Source of the DNA: a bacterium
Lineage (GTDB): Bacteria; Patescibacteriota; Doudnabacteria; UBA920; 2-01-FULL-46-14
Length of the DNA: 42,654 nucleotides
Direction of reading: 5' to 3'
Assembly: GCA_030700065.1 (NCBI GenBank)
Contig: JAUYKH010000015.1
Location: 1 to 42,654 of the forward strand
The position numbers were made by a program, and so were the translations under genes. The notes below the pieces were generated by a model. It was not told where the DNA came from. It made no database searches and saw nothing but the letters and a program-made list of their open reading frames with translations. Positions 2,581 through 40,971 of this stretch are shown piece by piece. Each line of letters starts with the position of its first letter. The stretch's first letter is position 1.

Positions 2581-3317
2581 GGACTAGAGATGAAGCTTAT
2601 TAATAAAAAAAGCAAAATCAGCCCTGTCTGAAAATATACTTTTTTGGCGGTCAGGCGGCCCGCGAAATACATCCCGCTCAATACATAAATAAGATAAAAA
2701 GCGGAAAAATTGACTACCGCGGCGGTCAAGAAATAAACGGGCATAAACAGAATCGCCCAGGCCGTTTCCACCATAATCAAACTTGCGATCAATGACAGGA
2801 GTATACAATCCAGTCCCGCTCGGCCCATCTTGTAGAACGCCTGAAAGAACATCGGAAAAAACACAATTAAGGTCAGGCTGCTTAGGAGCCACCACGCCGG
2901 AGTAAAAAAGAAATTAACAGACCAGACGGTAAGGAGCGCCATAAAACCCGCCGCCAGTGACACCGTTTCTTCCACAAGCAACGGCGGAACGGTCGGAAAA
3001 TAAATCTGATAAACGTAAAATAAAAAAACCGCGCCCAAGGCCAGGAACAACCTCATTCCCAAAGATGAAAGGGAGGCAACTGTCCCGAAAAAACCCACGA
3101 GGTAGATGGTTGGTAAAATAAGGGGCAGATAATCGGTCTCCGTCCGCGCTGTTTTTCTAATCAGTACGAGGTTGACGAATATAAAAAGAAACGTGACGCC
3201 GGCCCCCGCCCAAATAAATTGATTGAGGTTTTCGTACAAAGGGAGGCTAGCAACAAAAACAATCGCCGCCAAAATTATCCTAATTGATTTGCGCAATTTG
3301 CTTTGATTTTTGGGCAT
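2565..3317 (-). CDS. Polytopic membrane protein, unknown function
   Basis: 250 aa with about 8-9 hydrophobic segments; overlaps both neighbours in an operon. Confidence 0.8.
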   Translation of the reverse strand: MPKNQSKLRKSIRIILAAIVFVASLPLYENLNQFIWAGAGVTFLFIFVNLVLIRKTARTETDYLPLILPTIYLVGFFGTVASLSSLGMRLFLALGAVFLFYVYQIYFPTVPPLLVEETVSLAAGFMALLTVWSVNFFFTPAWWLLSSLTLIVFFPMFFQAFYKMGRAGLDCILLSLIASLIMVETAWAILFMPVYFLTAAVVNFSAFYLIYVLSGMYFAGRLTAKKVYFQTGLILLFLLISFISSPWKPL

Positions 3318-36632: not shown

Positions 36633-37250
36633 TTATTTCACAAAAGGCACAAATGCGAAACCGGGGAAACTTTCTTCTTCAAAGCTATCCTTACCGGTTT
36701 TCGTCAAATGTTTGATCGAGCAATCGTACGCTGTTCCAACCGGGATCACTATTTTCCCACCGACGACGAGTTGTTGTTTGAGGGATTTTGGAATTGCCGG
36801 CGCGGCGGCGCTGGCGATTATCCGGTCAAAGGGTGCGGCTTCTGGCAGACCCTCCCAGCCGGACTGATTGCGAAGCTCAATATTTTTATATTCCAATTTT
36901 TTTAAATTGCTTTTGCCAAACTCAAAAACTTCCGGAACAACTTCCAATCCCCATACTTTTCCCTGCTCGCCAGCTATGTGAGCCAAAATTCCGGCCGTCC
37001 AGCCTGAACCAAAACCAATGTCTAATATCTTTTGCCCGGGCTGGGGATCCAAAAGCTCCATCATAAAAGCCACGGTGTAGGGCTGGGAAATCGTCTGCCC
37101 TTCGCCAATCGGCAGGGGGGCATCAACATAAGCGTCCGCCTCAAACCCAGCCGGCACAAATTTCTTCCGGTCATTTGCCAGGAAAGCGAAAATAATTCGC
37201 GGGGTCTTCAAAACCCCGGCTTGTTTTAAACTCTCCACCAATTCACGCAT
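36633..37250 (-). CDS. pcm: Protein-L-isoaspartate O-methyltransferase
   Basis: AY.D.PL.IG.GQTISQP, LDIG.GSGW, APFDRI and QL..GG..V.PVG motifs. Start MRELVES at 37250. Confidence 0.95.
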   Translation of the reverse strand: MRELVESLKQAGVLKTPRIIFAFLANDRKKFVPAGFEADAYVDAPLPIGEGQTISQPYTVAFMMELLDPQPGQKILDIGFGSGWTAGILAHIAGEQGKVWGLEVVPEVFEFGKSNLKKLEYKNIELRNQSGWEGLPEAAPFDRIIASAAAPAIPKSLKQQLVVGGKIVIPVGTAYDCSIKHLTKTGKDSFEEESFPGFAFVPFVK

Positions 37251-37453
37251 CTTTTTTCCTTTTCGAATATACTGGACTTGGCACGAACCTTTTTTGAAAA
37301 AAATTTTTGACTCTGTGATGATTTCCGGCGGCAAACGCTACGGAATTCCCCCACACCCCCTTCCGCGGCGTTTGCAGGGGATAAATGGCGGGCAGCGGCG
37401 GAAAAATCAAGATTAAGGTCAGTATATCAGAAATTTGATAGTCCTTTAAAAAT

Positions 37454-37496
37454 AAAAAAGGCGGACAGATTTGCAAGATTAGCAAAAATGTCCGCC
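37454..37496 (-). terminator. Terminator after tyrA
   Basis: GGCGGACA...TGTCCGCC-TTTTTT on the minus strand. Confidence 0.7.
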
Positions 37497-37502
37497 CGAT
37501 AA

Positions 37503-38243
37503 CTATTGTTCTGCCAGCCTCCTTTCAAGATTTTCCAGTTCCTGCATGAATCTCTGCCGAACTTCGGCGGCAAATGGATTGCCCAACTCGATTGTTTTGA
37601 ACAATTCCCACGAATCCGCGCCCAGCAACTCGGCAACTTTACAGAGATGACCAAAGGCAGTTGTGGCAAGTTCGGAATTACTCACCTCGCATCCGGTCAA
37701 ACCCCGGGCGATGAAATGCGTGAGTGCCTGCACATTAGCCATTTGCCGATCGTGTTGCTCGGCGGTCATTTCAAACAAACGCAGCCCCTGGTCCCGAAGA
37801 AACTGCAACATGAATTCCGACTTGGGAGACGAAGCGGCAATTGGGCAGATGACCAGCCGATGGCCGTGCCAGCCGTCCTTAGCGCTTTGTGGACCGAACA
37901 ACGGATGTGTGCCCAAGAGCTCTATCTGCGGTAAATATTTCCGCATCAGACGAAGAGGTTCTTGTTTGACCGAGCACACATCCATCAACAGCGCGTTGGG
38001 ATTAACACACAAGGTTAACCGGCCAAGCAGTAATTCCATTGATTGTAACGGCACGGCCAACACGACCAGTTCCCTATTGGCCACTTCCTCGAGCGTAGAC
38101 CACCTCACGCTCATTTCAGCCGCTTCATCGTTAAAATTTCGGCAGTCCCAGACGGAGACATCAAAGGTCGTGGCCAGTTTTCGAGCGAAAAACTTGCCAA
38201 AGTTGCCAAAACCAACTATACCCACTCTTTCAATTCTTTTCAT
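37503..38243 (-). CDS. tyrA: Prephenate/arogenate dehydrogenase
   Basis: GIVGFG.FG Rossmann motif, LAVP, DVCSVK, THPLFGP and HD..MA..QALTH motifs; AAGGAG SD. Confidence 0.9.
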   Translation of the reverse strand: MKRIERVGIVGFGNFGKFFARKLATTFDVSVWDCRNFNDEAAEMSVRWSTLEEVANRELVVLAVPLQSMELLLGRLTLCVNPNALLMDVCSVKQEPLRLMRKYLPQIELLGTHPLFGPQSAKDGWHGHRLVICPIAASSPKSEFMLQFLRDQGLRLFEMTAEQHDRQMANVQALTHFIARGLTGCEVSNSELATTAFGHLCKVAELLGADSWELFKTIELGNPFAAEVRQRFMQELENLERRLAEQ

Positions 38244-38434
38244 ACACTCCTTTCATCGTCCCCATCGGAACGTTCTTTAAACCCGAACTTCAGTTTGAGA
38301 GCCAGTACAGTTACCCTGCTGTCTAAACCCTCGGGCAGACTATCCCTGTCGACATGCAGTATCACCCACAACTTTGAAAACCCACCTCCTAGAGCGGCTG
38401 CAACCGAACCAAAGAGTTCATCAAGTTCACTCAT
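38240..38434 (-). CDS. 64-aa hypothetical protein, first gene of the tyrA operon
   Basis: Strong GAGGAGG SD; ATGA overlap with the tyrA start. Confidence 0.55.
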   Translation of the reverse strand: MSELDELFGSVAAALGGGFSKLWVILHVDRDSLPEGLDSRVTVLALKLKFGFKERSDGDDERSV

Positions 38435-38524
38435 GTTTCCTCCTCATCGGAAGCATATGGCCTCCGGGCTTCTCTCTGCGCACCAAAGGCTGGTGTAGCC
38501 TCTCCACGAAATTGTGAAAGAACT

Positions 38525-38551
38525 AAAAACTGGCCCCGCAAGAGGCCAGTT
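38525..38551 (-). terminator. Attenuator 2 terminator
   Basis: AACTGGCCTC-TTGC-GGGGCCAGTT-TTT. Confidence 0.85.
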
Positions 38552-38574
38552 GGAGGAGTCGAAATTTTAAAAAA

Positions 38575-38655
38575 TTACTTCGGCACCTTGAAACAAGCCT
38601 CTTGCAAAGAGCCGTAGTAATAAACATTATTTTTTGGGAACATTACGGTAGTCAT
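38575..38655 (-). CDS. Tyr-rich leader peptide 2 (MTTVMFPKNNVYYYGSLQEACFKVPK)
   Basis: 26-aa ORF with TAT TAC TAC; contains GCAAGAGGC, complementary to the 5' arm and loop of terminator 2. Confidence 0.8.
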   Translation of the reverse strand: MTTVMFPKNNVYYYGSLQEACFKVPK

Positions 38656-38661
38656 AAATTT

Positions 38662-38690
38662 AAACAAAAAACCGCCCCTGCAGAAGGCGG
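38662..38690 (-). terminator. Attenuator 1 terminator
   Basis: CCGCCTT-CTGCA-GGGGCGG-TTTTTTGTTT. Confidence 0.85.
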
Positions 38691-38719
38691 ATATCATCAA
38701 GATTTAGTAAAAATGAAAA

Positions 38720-38788
38720 TTACCGCAACTTCTGCACAATTGAAGTCGGGTAGTAATAGTTGTTCATTTGTTGCTTAATTAAATTCAT
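38720..38788 (-). CDS. Tyr-rich leader peptide 1 ([MNLIKQQ]MNNYYYPTSIVQKLR)
   Basis: ORF from ATG 38788 or 38767 with TAT TAC TAC; contains TGCAGAAG-TT-GCGG, complementary to CCGC-CTTCTGCA in terminator 1. Confidence 0.8.
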   Translation of the reverse strand: MNLIKQQMNNYYYPTSIVQKLR

Positions 38789-38799
38789 AACTTAAGGCA

Positions 38800-38827
38800 A
38801 GTATAGCAAAAATGGGGATTATATCAA
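38800..38827 (-). promoter_or_regulatory. Promoter of the tyr leader
   Basis: TTGATA-16-TATACT with extended -10 (TGcTATACT). Confidence 0.7.
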
Positions 38828-38928
38828 TAGCGATTTTGGGAGTCAGAGAATTAGCCATTTGCTCGTGGGGTGGGTGGGACGAGCGTAGCGAGGAGGTAGT
38901 GCCTCATCAAAATTCAAAAAGTTTCAAC

Positions 38929-39002
38929 TGGTCGGGCTGCTGGGAATCGAACCCAGACTACATCCACCCCATGGACGCGTACTACCACTATACTACAGCC
39001 CG
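38929..39002 (-). tRNA. tRNA-Pro (GGG)
   Basis: CGGGCTG/CAGCCCG acceptor, CGTCC-ATGGGGT-GGATG anticodon arm, CTGGGTTCGATTCCCAG T-arm, encoded CCA. Confidence 0.93.
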
Positions 39003-39335
39003 TTAGTCTTCTCGAGATAGACCTTTAATTTTTGTTTGATTACTTCCCTTCCATAACCGCTTTTGAAAAATTTTTCCGCCGCTGCTGCATCTGACTTTTC
39101 GATGTAAGCTTCATAGAATATGAGTTTAAATGGCCCGTTCTTGGAAGTATAACTACCACCTTGCTTGCGATTGTGTTCAATTACTCTACGACGCAAATCG
39201 CTCGTCAGTCCTGTATACAAACGTTTATTCTTGTCGCTAATTAATACATAAACATACCACATATCAATCCCTTTACACAGTACCCGCCTCTTCGGCGGGT
39301 CGCCGTGGAGGCGACTACCACTATACTACAGCCCG
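38981..39335 (-). mobile_element. Putative tRNA-Pro-targeted GIY-YIG mini-element with 22-bp direct repeats
   Basis: ACTACCACTATACTACAGCCCG occurs at 38981-39002 and at 39314-39335, flanking the GIY-YIG gene. Confidence 0.65.
38993..39262 (-). CDS. Standalone GIY-YIG nuclease
   Basis: YVYVL.S.....YTG.T.DL.RR..EHN, LIFYEAY and A...E..FKSG.GR motifs; the stop codon lies inside tRNA-Pro. Confidence 0.92.
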   Translation of the reverse strand: MWYVYVLISDKNKRLYTGLTSDLRRRVIEHNRKQGGSYTSKNGPFKLIFYEAYIEKSDAAAAEKFFKSGYGREVIKQKLKVYLEKTNGL

Positions 39336-39405
39336 ATTCAGGCAAGGATATTAAAATATTACCATTTTCAAAAAATTCGGACAAAACTAATGAAACAAAC
39401 AATTC

Positions 39406-39437
39406 AAAAGGGCTGGACGAATCCAACCCCTTTGTTT
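39406..39437. terminator. Hairpin terminator
   Basis: AAGGGGTTGGA-TTCG-TCCAGCCCTT-TT on the minus strand. Confidence 0.7.
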
Positions 39438-39505
39438 AATCCTCCGTATGTGAAGCTTACAATTACAATCACATCCTGCGCATCACCTCCTTCAATTTCC
39501 CAGTT

Positions 39506-39718
39506 TTATCGCGCCGCCGCAACCCCTCGTCCCGCTGCTTCGCGCGAAGCTCCGTTCGCTCCGAGGCACTCCGTCTGGTTGGAAAATTGGTGCAGATATT
39601 GGTGCGACTCCCCGCAGTTGTCGCAGATATACGAAAGGTTCGGCCAGCCATCGCGACTTTTCAAAACCGCGCGAATCTGCCCGTCCCGATGAACATCACT
39701 CGCACTTACCACAATCAT
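39506..39718 (-). CDS. 70-aa hypothetical protein with CxxC
   Basis: AAGGAGG SD; YICDNCGESH...H...C pattern. Confidence 0.55.
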   Translation of the reverse strand: MIVVSASDVHRDGQIRAVLKSRDGWPNLSYICDNCGESHQYLHQFSNQTECLGANGASREAAGRGVAAAR

Positions 39719-39993
39719 TAATCTTTCCTCCTTTTCTACTAAAACCGAAATTCCGCAAGCTTTTGCGGAATTAAGGTCGTTTGCTGCGAATTTTGACTAA
39801 ACTTTTTACTTTCCCTAGAATTCCGCCCCGGCTTAGTTAGCGATGGTAATTCCCGCAAAACCGATGATCATGTCGGTTGGAACCTCACTTATTCCATCCC
39901 CTAACCCTGGCTTGGTTCATGGATTAGCAAATAATTTAATCTGAATTCATCCTACCACAGACTGTCGAAAAGTCAAGGATTTATCCACAACGG

Positions 39994-40971
39994 CTACGGA
40001 CCCGCCATTCTGTTAACGATGTCATTCAGCTCCTCGTCCGAAAAAAACTCTATGGTAATTTTGCCGCCCTTTGCCCCTTTGTTGACCGCGACCCGCGTGC
40101 CGAATTTATTGCGTAGCAAGTTCTCGAGCGATTCCAGGAAGGGATCGGGCACAAACATCTCATGGACTTTGATTTTGCGGTTCCTGATCTCCCTGACCTT
40201 GCTCTCGATGTCTCTGACCCTCATCTTGTCCTTCAGAACGATCTTGAACATGACCAGCATCTCTTCCCGATCCCGCAGGGACAGCAATGGCCGCGCCTGT
40301 CCCTCGGCAATCGCCCCTTCGATCAAAGCGCGCTGAACTTCCACCGGTAAATTCAAAAGCCGGATCAGATTTGAGATCGTGGAATCGTCTTTGCCCACGC
40401 GCTTGGCAATCTCGGTAATCTGCAGACCAAATTCCTGCTGGAGCTGCTGATAAGCCTTGGCCTCTTCAATCGGATTCAGATCCGCGCGCTGAACATTTTC
40501 AATGAGCGCCAGCTCAAGCTTGGTTTGCGAGGACATGCCGCGGCTCACAAAAACCGGCACCTTGGAAAGGCCCGCGATCTTCGCGGCGCGAAACCGCCGC
40601 TCGCCAACCACTATTTCATACATTCCATCCGGTCTGGCGATGACCACGAGCGGCTGGATGATCCCGTGCATTTTGATTGACTGCGCCAGCTCTTCAAGCT
40701 TTTCCGTGTTGAAAATTCTGCGGGGCTGAAATTCGTTCGGGATGATCTTTCCGAGCTCAACTTCAAAAAGCGCCTGCCCGTCGAGCGGCGAACGAAATCT
40801 CGCCTGCGGGTCGGACTTCGCCGTCGGATGCTTGATTACGTTTAATTCTCCCCCATGCGAAGGGGGAGATGAAGTGGGGGTAGAAGACGCTGTGGCCGCC
40901 TCATCCAAATCATCCAATTCCTCATCCTTCAGCCCCTCAAAATTACCTAATTTGAATACATCATCGCTCAT
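39994..40971 (-). CDS. parB: ParB/Spo0J partition protein
   Basis: PN.FQPR..F, SI..HGIIQP, GERRFRA, LIEN.QR.DLNPIEEA and HTH motifs. Confidence 0.95.
   Translation of the reverse strand: MSDDVFKLGNFEGLKDEELDDLDEAATASSTPTSSPPSHGGELNVIKHPTAKSDPQARFRSPLDGQALFEVELGKIIPNEFQPRRIFNTEKLEELAQSIKMHGIIQPLVVIARPDGMYEIVVGERRFRAAKIAGLSKVPVFVSRGMSSQTKLELALIENVQRADLNPIEEAKAYQQLQQEFGLQITEIAKRVGKDDSTISNLIRLLNLPVEVQRALIEGAIAEGQARPLLSLRDREEMLVMFKIVLKDKMRVRDIESKVREIRNRKIKVHEMFVPDPFLESLENLLRNKFGTRVAVNKGAKGGKITIEFFSDEELNDIVNRMAGP

Follow-up and report, generated by a model that had tools for sequence, protein, structure and literature searches.

Two putative tyrosine-codon leader-peptide attenuators in series ahead of a tyrA-like gene in Doudnabacteria

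Known attenuators and the leader of the tyrA-like gene

Classical ribosome-mediated attenuators have been described in Proteobacteria (trp, his, pheA, thr, leu, ilv), in Actinobacteria (trp, ilv, leu) and in bacilli (the His leader), and have in common a short open reading frame (ORF) in which codons for the pathway's own amino acid are clustered, a terminator of the intrinsic type, an antiterminator that cannot form together with it, and a 1:2 helix across the control codons. The same elements, with the 1:2 helix as a predicted local fold, are present twice in succession on the minus strand of a stretch of 42,654 nucleotides (nt) from a bacterium of the Doudnabacteria, a class within the Candidate Phyla Radiation (CPR, or Patescibacteria), where they precede an ORF of 64 amino acids (aa) and a tyrA-like gene. 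This whole stretch, positions 1 to 42,654 of contig JAUYKH010000015.1 (assembly GCA_030700065.1), is referred to as the window. Based on sequence comparison and folding, it is highly probable that the locus holds two classical leader-peptide attenuators in series, which would report charged tRNA-Tyr and control both the 64-aa ORF and tyrA. The window system differs from the described ones in having tyrosine as the control amino acid, a CPR host, two serial units and an apparently leaderless first leader, and our verdict is that it would best be classed as a new variant of classical attenuation, Tyr-specific, tandem and probably leaderless, whose conservation extends over one CPR class and into a neighbouring order.

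In a passage of a 2010 article, leader peptides were stated to be known only from Proteobacteria and Actinobacteria, to which Firmicutes were added through the His leader of bacilli (PMC2965389), and a survey of Actinobacteria puts tyrosine under T-box control in other species (PMC1262725). A literature search, which had subscription papers and supplements outside its scope, found no Tyr-codon leader peptides and nothing relevant on classical attenuation in CPR/Patescibacteria; where a paper on Patescibacteria did speak of leader peptides, it meant bacteriocin precursors only. When positions 37000-40000 were scanned against Rfam (cmscan, E up to 10), tRNA and chance-level matches only were returned, with no Trp, His, Phe, Thr or Leu leader and no T-box (RF00230), so that no known leader, T-box or riboswitch family applies to this locus. 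With the Tyr-specific T-box riboswitches of Firmicutes it would share the sensing of tRNA-Tyr charging through a choice between terminator and antiterminator, but Stem I, specifier loop, T-box sequence and Rfam match are all missing here, and what has been conserved is an ORF. Tandem riboswitches and tandem T-boxes also place two sensors of the same signal in series, these being RNA aptamers or tRNA-binding RNAs and not translated ORFs.

The sequence-only reading of the window had known of no tandem classical attenuators, but a precedent for ORF-based ones does exist. In the leader of Salmonella mgtCBR, two short ORFs (mgtM and mgtP) each have an attenuator in one leader RNA, which is called a singular example in a passage of the paper concerned (PMC3641672). 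The likeness of two ORF-dependent attenuators per leader is one of architecture only, with no sequence relation; the mgtCBR units answer different signals (ATP and Pro-tRNA), whereas both units here carry Tyr codons and the arrangement is conserved in 12 loci. Also comparable are the leaderless poly-cysteine short ORFs of mycobacteria, which in the relevant part of a preprint (bioRxiv 10.1101/834739) are likewise leaderless and place consecutive codons for the regulatory amino acid ahead of an operon; these belong to another phylum and use another amino acid, and in the window clear intrinsic terminators follow the ORFs.

The features of the locus, all on the minus strand and numbered by window position, are as follows.

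38827-38800, minus: promoter of the sigma-70 type, TTGATA-16-TATACT (consensus scan: 10/12 matches, TG before the -10 hexamer)
38788-38720, minus: leader ORF 1, 22 aa, MNLIKQQMNNYYYPTSIVQKLR; ATG 11 nt past the -10 hexamer; homologous ORFs of 16-32 aa in 18 other loci
38758-38750, minus: leader 1 control codons TAT TAC TAC (codons 11-13), also within the 1:2 helix
38736-38723, minus: unit 1 region 2, TGCAGAAGTTGCGG; alternative pairing partners are the Tyr-codon region and the terminator 1 5' arm plus loop
38690-38666, minus: terminator 1 (hairpin 38690-38672), CCGCCTT-CTGCA-GGGGCGG plus T6; 7 pairs, 5 of them G-C, loop of 5
38655-38575, minus: leader ORF 2, 26 aa, MTTVMFPKNNVYYYGSLQEACFKVPK (C-terminal part ...NNVYYYGSLQEACFKVPK); homologous Tyr-bearing ORFs in 12 other loci
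38622-38614, minus: leader 2 control codons TAT TAC TAC (codons 12-14)
38605-38538, minus: unit 2 antiterminator, a long-range helix (38605-38596 with 38547-38538) that encloses an inner hairpin at about 38588-38554
38551-38523, minus: terminator 2 (hairpin 38551-38528), AACTGGCCTC-TTGC-GGGGCCAGTT plus T run; 10 pairs, 6 of them G-C, loop of 4
38524-38435, minus: 5' untranslated region (90 nt) of the 64-aa ORF, with conserved start GTTCTTTCACAATT
38434-38240, minus: 64-aa ORF preceded by a strong Shine-Dalgarno site (GGAGG); stop codon and tyrA start overlap in ATGA
38243-37503, minus: tyrA-like gene of the prephenate/arogenate dehydrogenase family, 246 aa (Pfam PDH_N and PDH_C)
37497-37454, minus: likely operon-end terminator, GGCGGACA ... 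TGTCCGCC plus T6, with a long loop (read from the sequence, as the terminator scan had a loop limit of 8 and its listing therefore does not include it)

The promoter, the two ORFs with TAT-TAC-TAC, the two intrinsic terminators, the 64-aa ORF and tyrA all lie where the sequence-only reading had placed them, as judged by the sequence, the ORF list and the consensus scan. The alternative pairings that it had proposed (CGACTTC with GAAGTTG, TGCAGAAG..GCGG with CCGC-CTTCTGCA, and GCAAGAGGC with GCCTCTTGC) are present in the predicted folds.

The genome that carries the window (798,033 bases in 41 contigs, 93.5% complete) has one copy of each unit. The motif TAYTAYTAY occurs 50 times on both of its strands, and two of these occurrences lie 136 nt apart at the locus. 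A crude scan of the same genome for codon-run leaders, unfiltered for coding regions, gave 20 candidates, with both Tyr leaders among them. A BLAST match within this genome, on contig C21, was tried as a further leader and was unsupported by the TAYTAYTAY scan.

Conservation and folding of the two units

Labels beginning with G denote genomes, those with L denote loci or stretches and those with C denote contigs (for example, L120 is G106:C18 and L003 is G006:C58). Upstream of the nearest TyrA homologue (G004, 54% identity), the arrangement is that of the window, with a promoter, a 22-codon ORF, two terminators and a second ORF. Leader 1 of G004 has YY at codons 11-12 and ends in ...LQMLR, its terminator is CCGCC/GGCGG, and the leader 2 ORF carries YYYG..QEA.F and is followed by the second terminator. 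At further related loci, inspection of the upstream sequences showed a TTGACA-like -35 element with 16-17 nt spacing at the corresponding place.

Covariance models for unit 1 (R1) and unit 2 (R2) were used to search 146 genomes of the order; a search by class covered the identical genomes and added nothing. R1 matched 13/146 genomes at E<=0.001 and 17/146 at E<=0.01, while R2 matched 12/146 at E<=0.01, and in a second order, reached via locus L068, R1 matches were found in 2/21 genomes. An exact pattern scan of 185,579 species genomes returned 58 stretches, seven of them genuine and all of these in CPR-labelled bins, and a scan of metagenome contigs returned 18, with seven genuine and five of these new. 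Every genuine hit of both scans lies in a small, moderate-G+C, CPR-type context, and the public labels of the related contigs are Candidatus Doudnabacteria, Kerfeldbacteria or generic 'Saccharibacteria' bins. The remaining 51/58 species-genome stretches were dropped as chance, and 11/18 metagenome stretches were dropped as well, all on account of high G+C, no U tail and no short Tyr ORF. In the order-wide BLAST search, 19/146 genomes had matches at E<=0.01, and only those at E<=3.5e-7 (G079, G004, G116, G113, G002 and G080) proved to be leaders, the others being short (19-37 nt). Weak R1 matches in G096 (L124) and G131 (L127), with E of 0.002-0.008, cover the terminator part only and were dropped.

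In the final collection there are 19 distinct leaders for unit 1 and, for unit 2, 13 that bear Tyr codons, in addition to a decayed unit 2 in G006; L105 and L107, which duplicate the leaders of G008 and G002, and G076 (L126, ..YCYLQKIRL*) were left out of the counts. Unit 1 is followed by unit 2 in 12 loci, and the units stand alone in eight loci (unit 1) and two loci (unit 2). Judged by these comparisons, the two-unit leader design is a conserved family, beyond what chance would give.

Several observations were made in passing. The decayed unit 2 of G006 (L003 2266-2374) has kept the RNA motif (R2, E = 3.8e-11), with its Tyr codons replaced and its ORF cut to a few codons; it sits upstream of a 353-aa PDH_N protein and has tRNA-like fragments just upstream. 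An extra G+C-rich hairpin, often CCCTCCC...GGGAGGG, is present between terminator 1 and leader 2 in L008 (about 3040-3100), L109, L123, L121, L011 and L014, and is absent from the window. Since R1 weakly matches four unit-2 sequences (window 38525-38655, L014, L109 and L123; E of 0.002-0.004), units 1 and 2 may be distant duplicates, or they may merely be alike in architecture. Five chance-looking hits in high-G+C Burkholderiales (L036, L038, L040, L077 and L079) share a common ...LLQ(S/L/P)LR* end before CCGCC...GGCGG, and these may represent an unrelated conserved element.

Between promoter and structural gene, a short ORF with start and stop is kept in 19 loci for unit 1 and in 13 for unit 2. 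The first 10-11 codons of the 19 unit-1 leaders are nearly unconserved, with the ATG, the open frame and the length being kept, and the first Tyr codon stands at codon 11 in 13 leaders, at codon 12 in five and at codon 20 in one. In unit 2 it stands at codon 10-12 in 12/13. The control position of unit 1 reads YYY in 11 leaders, YxY (x = T, S, M or N) in six, YY in one and a single Y in one. TAT and TAC interchange among the leaders, and at least two Tyr codons fall inside a stretch of 3-5 codons in 30/32 leaders of both units. The C-terminal LQxLR* of unit 1 is the translation of TGCAG...TGCGGTRA, an RNA pairing element whose TGCAG and TGCGGT (in region 2) are invariant in alignment A1, and the conserved ...Q(E/K)(A/V)(S/C)F(K/Q)(A/V)PK* of unit 2 is imposed by the RNA as well. 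Leader 2 of G098, G108 and G056 runs in another frame across the conserved AAGAGGC motif and still has three to four Tyr codons (YYAY, YTYY or YTYYY). The Tyr codons are presumably read as codons, because these frame-shifted leaders would otherwise be hard to explain. Taken together, the leaders indicate that the ORF and its Tyr codons are kept and not the peptide.

The ATG of leader 1 follows the -10 hexamer at a spacing of 6-13 nt in 17/19 loci (18 and 23 nt in G098 and L094). As this is too near for a Shine-Dalgarno site, leader 1 is probably read as a leaderless or nearly leaderless message.

The 281-nt leader of the window folds with z = -4.04, and 0/200 shuffles were equally stable. On alignment A6, the terminator 1 helix is paired in 96.2% of cells, with 5/7 pairs changed on both sides, and for the whole unit-1 structure 0/500 shuffles reached the observed score (slid controls pair 35-59%). 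The RNAalifold consensus of unit 2 is the antiterminator with its inner hairpin, which in the window folds at -26.4 kcal/mol. On alignment A5 this antiterminator is paired in 92.4% of cells, 11/24 pairs are changed on both sides and again 0/500 shuffles reached the observed score (slid controls pair 34-59%). Column-wise pair counting was dropped for the unit-1 antiterminator because its internal loop varies in length between loci, and it was tested per sequence by means of folds and of cognate versus non-cognate duplexes. Duplexes of region 2 with region 3 were more stable when cognate in unit 1 (-15.78 versus -14.02 kcal/mol, permutation p = 0.0027) and in unit 2 (-15.05 versus -13.24 kcal/mol, permutation p = 0.0047).

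The ribosome was then modelled by masking, with all RNA 5' of it treated as unavailable. When it was masked at the first Tyr codon, the 5' arm of the terminator paired upstream in 19/19 unit-1 leaders (-12 to -22 kcal/mol) and in 13/13 unit-2 leaders (-18 to -31 kcal/mol), and when it was masked at the stop codon the terminator formed in 19/19 and 13/13. Compared with shuffles of the upstream strand, the native antiterminator energies have a mean z of -3.69 (unit 1) and -4.02 (unit 2), and those of the window have z of -4.79 and -4.55, with 0/100 shuffles each. Untranslated RNA folds into the 1:2 helix and the terminator in 15/19 unit-1 and 7/13 unit-2 leaders. The 1:2 helices of the window exist as local folds (-13.5 and -17.8 kcal/mol), and in that of unit 1 the stop region's GGTAA pairs with the Tyr codons, an arrangement that the trp leader also has. 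U tracts follow 19/19 unit-1 and 11/13 unit-2 terminators.

From these elements we infer the following course of events. Transcription would begin a few bases ahead of the leader 1 ATG, giving a leaderless or nearly leaderless message on which the ORF would be translated. With plentiful Tyr-tRNA the ribosome would reach the stop codon, region 2 (TGCAG...GCGG) would be covered or re-paired with the Tyr-codon region, and with region 2 unavailable the CCGCC/GGCGG hairpin and the U tract would end the transcript. With scarce Tyr-tRNA the ribosome would wait at the Tyr codons, region 2 would be left free to pair with the terminator's 5' arm and its loop, and the polymerase would read on. The decision would be repeated at leader 2, where the antiterminator would be the long-range helix closed over the inner hairpin, and tyrA would be reached only by transcripts that pass both checkpoints. 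Two units sensing Tyr-tRNA in this way could multiply or sharpen repression, or add steepness to the response.

The proposal of the sequence-only reading, two serial Tyr-keyed leader-peptide attenuators before tyrA, is thus supported by conservation, covariation, ribosome-position folding and the tyrosine-supply genes described below. A comparison of related loci, as it had suggested for the regions upstream of tyrA homologues, gave in-frame Tyr codons in 19 unit-1 and 13 unit-2 examples, with stems that covary, and the folding of terminator against antiterminator gave the expected switch in 19/19 and 13/13 constrained folds.

Genes behind the leaders

The tyrA-like protein of the window matches Pfam PDH_N with 58 bits (cut-off 26.5) and PDH_C with 23.6 bits (cut-off 22), and its best NCBIfam model is prephenate dehydrogenase with 126 bits, which is under the equivalog cut-off of 310. 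The 64-aa ORF ahead of it has no Pfam family and no similarity to the equally placed small ORFs in G004 or L102. The genes given here are the first recognisable ones behind each leader unless stated otherwise. PDH_N dehydrogenases were found in this place in the window, G004, G080, G006 and G108, with weaker and more distant TyrA-like genes in L109, in G056 and as the second gene in G008. Behind the leader of G106 lies a fusion of Pterin_4a and Biopterin_H, which among NCBIfam models matches phenylalanine 4-monooxygenase best, and after the fusion comes a tyrS-like gene; at L120 515-1471 (G106:C18) this pterin-4a-carbinolamine dehydratase/biopterin-dependent aromatic hydroxylase fusion of 318 aa stands directly behind a YTY leader. 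There is a class IV aminotransferase (Aminotran_4) in G079 and a weak PDT-like protein in G116, and Asp/Glu-type racemases (Asp_Glu_race) were identified in G008, G113, L068 and L110, with a remnant in G039. Several small proteins without a family also lie behind leaders. Genes of the Asp/Glu/hydantoin racemase family (L008, L014, L068 and L110) are the commonest cargo of Tyr leaders other than TyrA, and the racemase of L008 (G008), the only one tested, exceeds the cut-off set for TIGR00035, a subfamily of amino acid racemases.

The match between control codons and regulated gene that had been noted for the window therefore extends to TyrA-like, Phe hydroxylase and aminotransferase genes behind other Tyr leaders, and annotation of these loci supports a coherent regulon of tyrosine-supply genes. 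In the host genome, 93.5% complete, CM_2, chorismate synthase, class I/II aminotransferase and class IV aminotransferase were not found, each family being present in 13-14/14 control genomes, so that the tyrA-like gene looks like an orphan step. Its position behind a Tyr sensor argues that this TyrA really serves tyrosine supply, and it would perhaps be fed by scavenged arogenate.

Leaders keyed to other amino acids appear to be present as well. G113:C40 (L128 1501-1800) has two tandem Val-run leaders (VVVV/VVVVV), MNNKQQSIQSLVVVVSLT and MLNNLLKISEVVVVVSSP, each with a terminator, and G099:C3 (L125) has a Leu-rich leader, MKIFATQNILSLSLLLLQAVF. All of these give the three-state folds (stalled, stop and free), and the genes downstream are small. 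A wider reading joins these leaders with the Tyr regulon; we put it forward tentatively and hold it to be somewhat less likely than an even chance. According to this, CPR of the class would possess a modular attenuator (a leaderless ORF with control codons at 11-13, often in two units, for Tyr and apparently Val/Leu), and the Tyr regulon would mark the ways in which these cells, lacking the shikimate pathway, gain tyrosine out of precursors taken from a host. Tyrosine would come from scavenged arogenate or prephenate through the orphan TyrA, from Phe by hydroxylation, by transamination, and from D-Tyr or a related compound through a racemase of the Asp/Glu type.

To our knowledge, almost nothing is known of gene regulation in CPR. 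If the attenuators function as proposed, classical attenuation would gain an amino acid (tyrosine) and a phylum (Patescibacteria/CPR), and two ORF checkpoints for the same signal in series, in 12 loci, would offer a natural system in which to learn what serial attenuators buy, be it tightness or steepness. In shikimate-less genomes a Tyr leader would flag the gene behind it as one of tyrosine supply, whether an orphan TyrA, the unusual pterin dehydratase-hydroxylase fusion, a racemase-like gene or a small protein, and such labels would make the nutrition of these epibionts testable. Leaders of this short, self-contained kind could moreover be put to use in CPR genetics as switches of expression.

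Weighing of the attenuation model and its alternatives

A number of points weigh against ribosome-mediated attenuation at this locus. The weakest point of the model is the translation start of leader 2, which has no recognisable Shine-Dalgarno site in the window and a well-placed one in only about 2/13 loci (G008 and G081), as opposed to the strong GGAGG at structural genes. As the Tyr codons belong to the 1:2 helix, where they face GGTAA in the stop region, some of their conservation at the nucleotide level could be due to structure. Both window units, when untranslated, have the antiterminator as their minimum free energy fold (overall this holds for 4/19 unit-1 and 6/13 unit-2 leaders), so that termination without translation needs a kinetic argument. 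With a ribosome at the leader-2 stop codon, region 2 would really lie just behind it, unlike in the masking, and shuffles, too, show upstream pairing of the terminator arm, in 46% of cases for unit 1 and in 67% for unit 2, the energies alone being discriminating. Pair counts come from model-fitted alignments, and because the sequences are related, their independence is overstated by the shuffle and permutation figures. Decay is seen in some members, with unit 2 of G006 lacking Tyr codons, G156 having one, G081 reading F-Y-F, and unit 2 of G080 and of G098 being without a U tract.

It could be that the switches are real and ribosome-free, responding to a Tyr-responsive RNA-binding protein, to uncharged tRNA-Tyr (in a T-box-like manner via the UAY triplets) or to a small ligand, with the ORFs being incidental. 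The conservation of the UAY triplets and of the unit 2 inner hairpin at the nucleotide level would fit with this, as would the general lack of a Shine-Dalgarno site at leader 2 and, as the cited passage of the Actinobacteria survey has it, the T-box control of tyrosine genes elsewhere (PMC1262725). However, no T-box or other Rfam match was obtained at E up to 10, and an in-frame ATG and open frame precede the Tyr codons in 19/19 and 13/13 leaders through a stretch that is otherwise unconserved. The first Tyr codon keeps to positions 11-12 in 18/19 unit-1 and 10-12 in 12/13 unit-2 leaders, YxY variants hold the flanking Tyr codons in frame, and three unit-2 leaders change frame relative to the RNA motif with their Tyr codons kept. 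Furthermore, the Val- and Leu-run versions of the architecture would each need a factor of their own. For these reasons we hold a ribosome-free switch to be very improbable.

A second possibility is that the ORFs are translated and act on downstream translation or mRNA stability, or through peptides in trans, and not via transcription termination. One region that bears on this, and that the sequence-only reading had passed over, is 38524-38435, after terminator 2, where three loci (window, G004 and L102) align at 72% column identity. A tentative prediction for all three pairs the start of this conserved block (GTTCTTTCACAATT; GTTCTTTC) with the Shine-Dalgarno region of the next ORF (GAGGAGGAA, GGAGG), and the folds have z of -2.13, -2.82 and -0.93, respectively. 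It may represent a third, translational layer of control, and could conceivably belong to the switch. Besides this predicted sequestering helix, control at the level of translation or stability would be favored by unit 2 of G080 and G098, in which a hairpin without a U tract stands right before the Shine-Dalgarno site, and by the poly-Cys short ORFs of mycobacteria, which are called attenuators of operonic expression in the part of the preprint concerned (bioRxiv 10.1101/834739). Yet both hairpins, in the window and at most other loci, have the form of intrinsic terminators, a G+C-rich stem and then 4-7 T, and the peptides are unconserved beyond what RNA pairing imposes; this explanation is considered very improbable, and termination controlled by ribosomes on the leaders is preferred. 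That the hairpins are ordinary terminators of an upstream tRNA-Pro gene, which ends 100 nt upstream of the promoter, and that the Tyr ORFs arose by chance can be given practically no weight, as it is already contradicted by the comparative data, in which units with their own promoters occur behind other upstream genes with covariation and in-frame Tyr codons.

A further feature was noted upstream of the leader. A 22-nt direct repeat, which is the 5' part of tRNA-Pro(GGG), occurs at 38981-39002 and 39314-39335 on the minus strand and flanks a GIY-YIG endonuclease ORF of 89 aa (39262-38993). This endonuclease gene seems to have been inserted at the tRNA-Pro gene and to have duplicated the 5' end of the latter.

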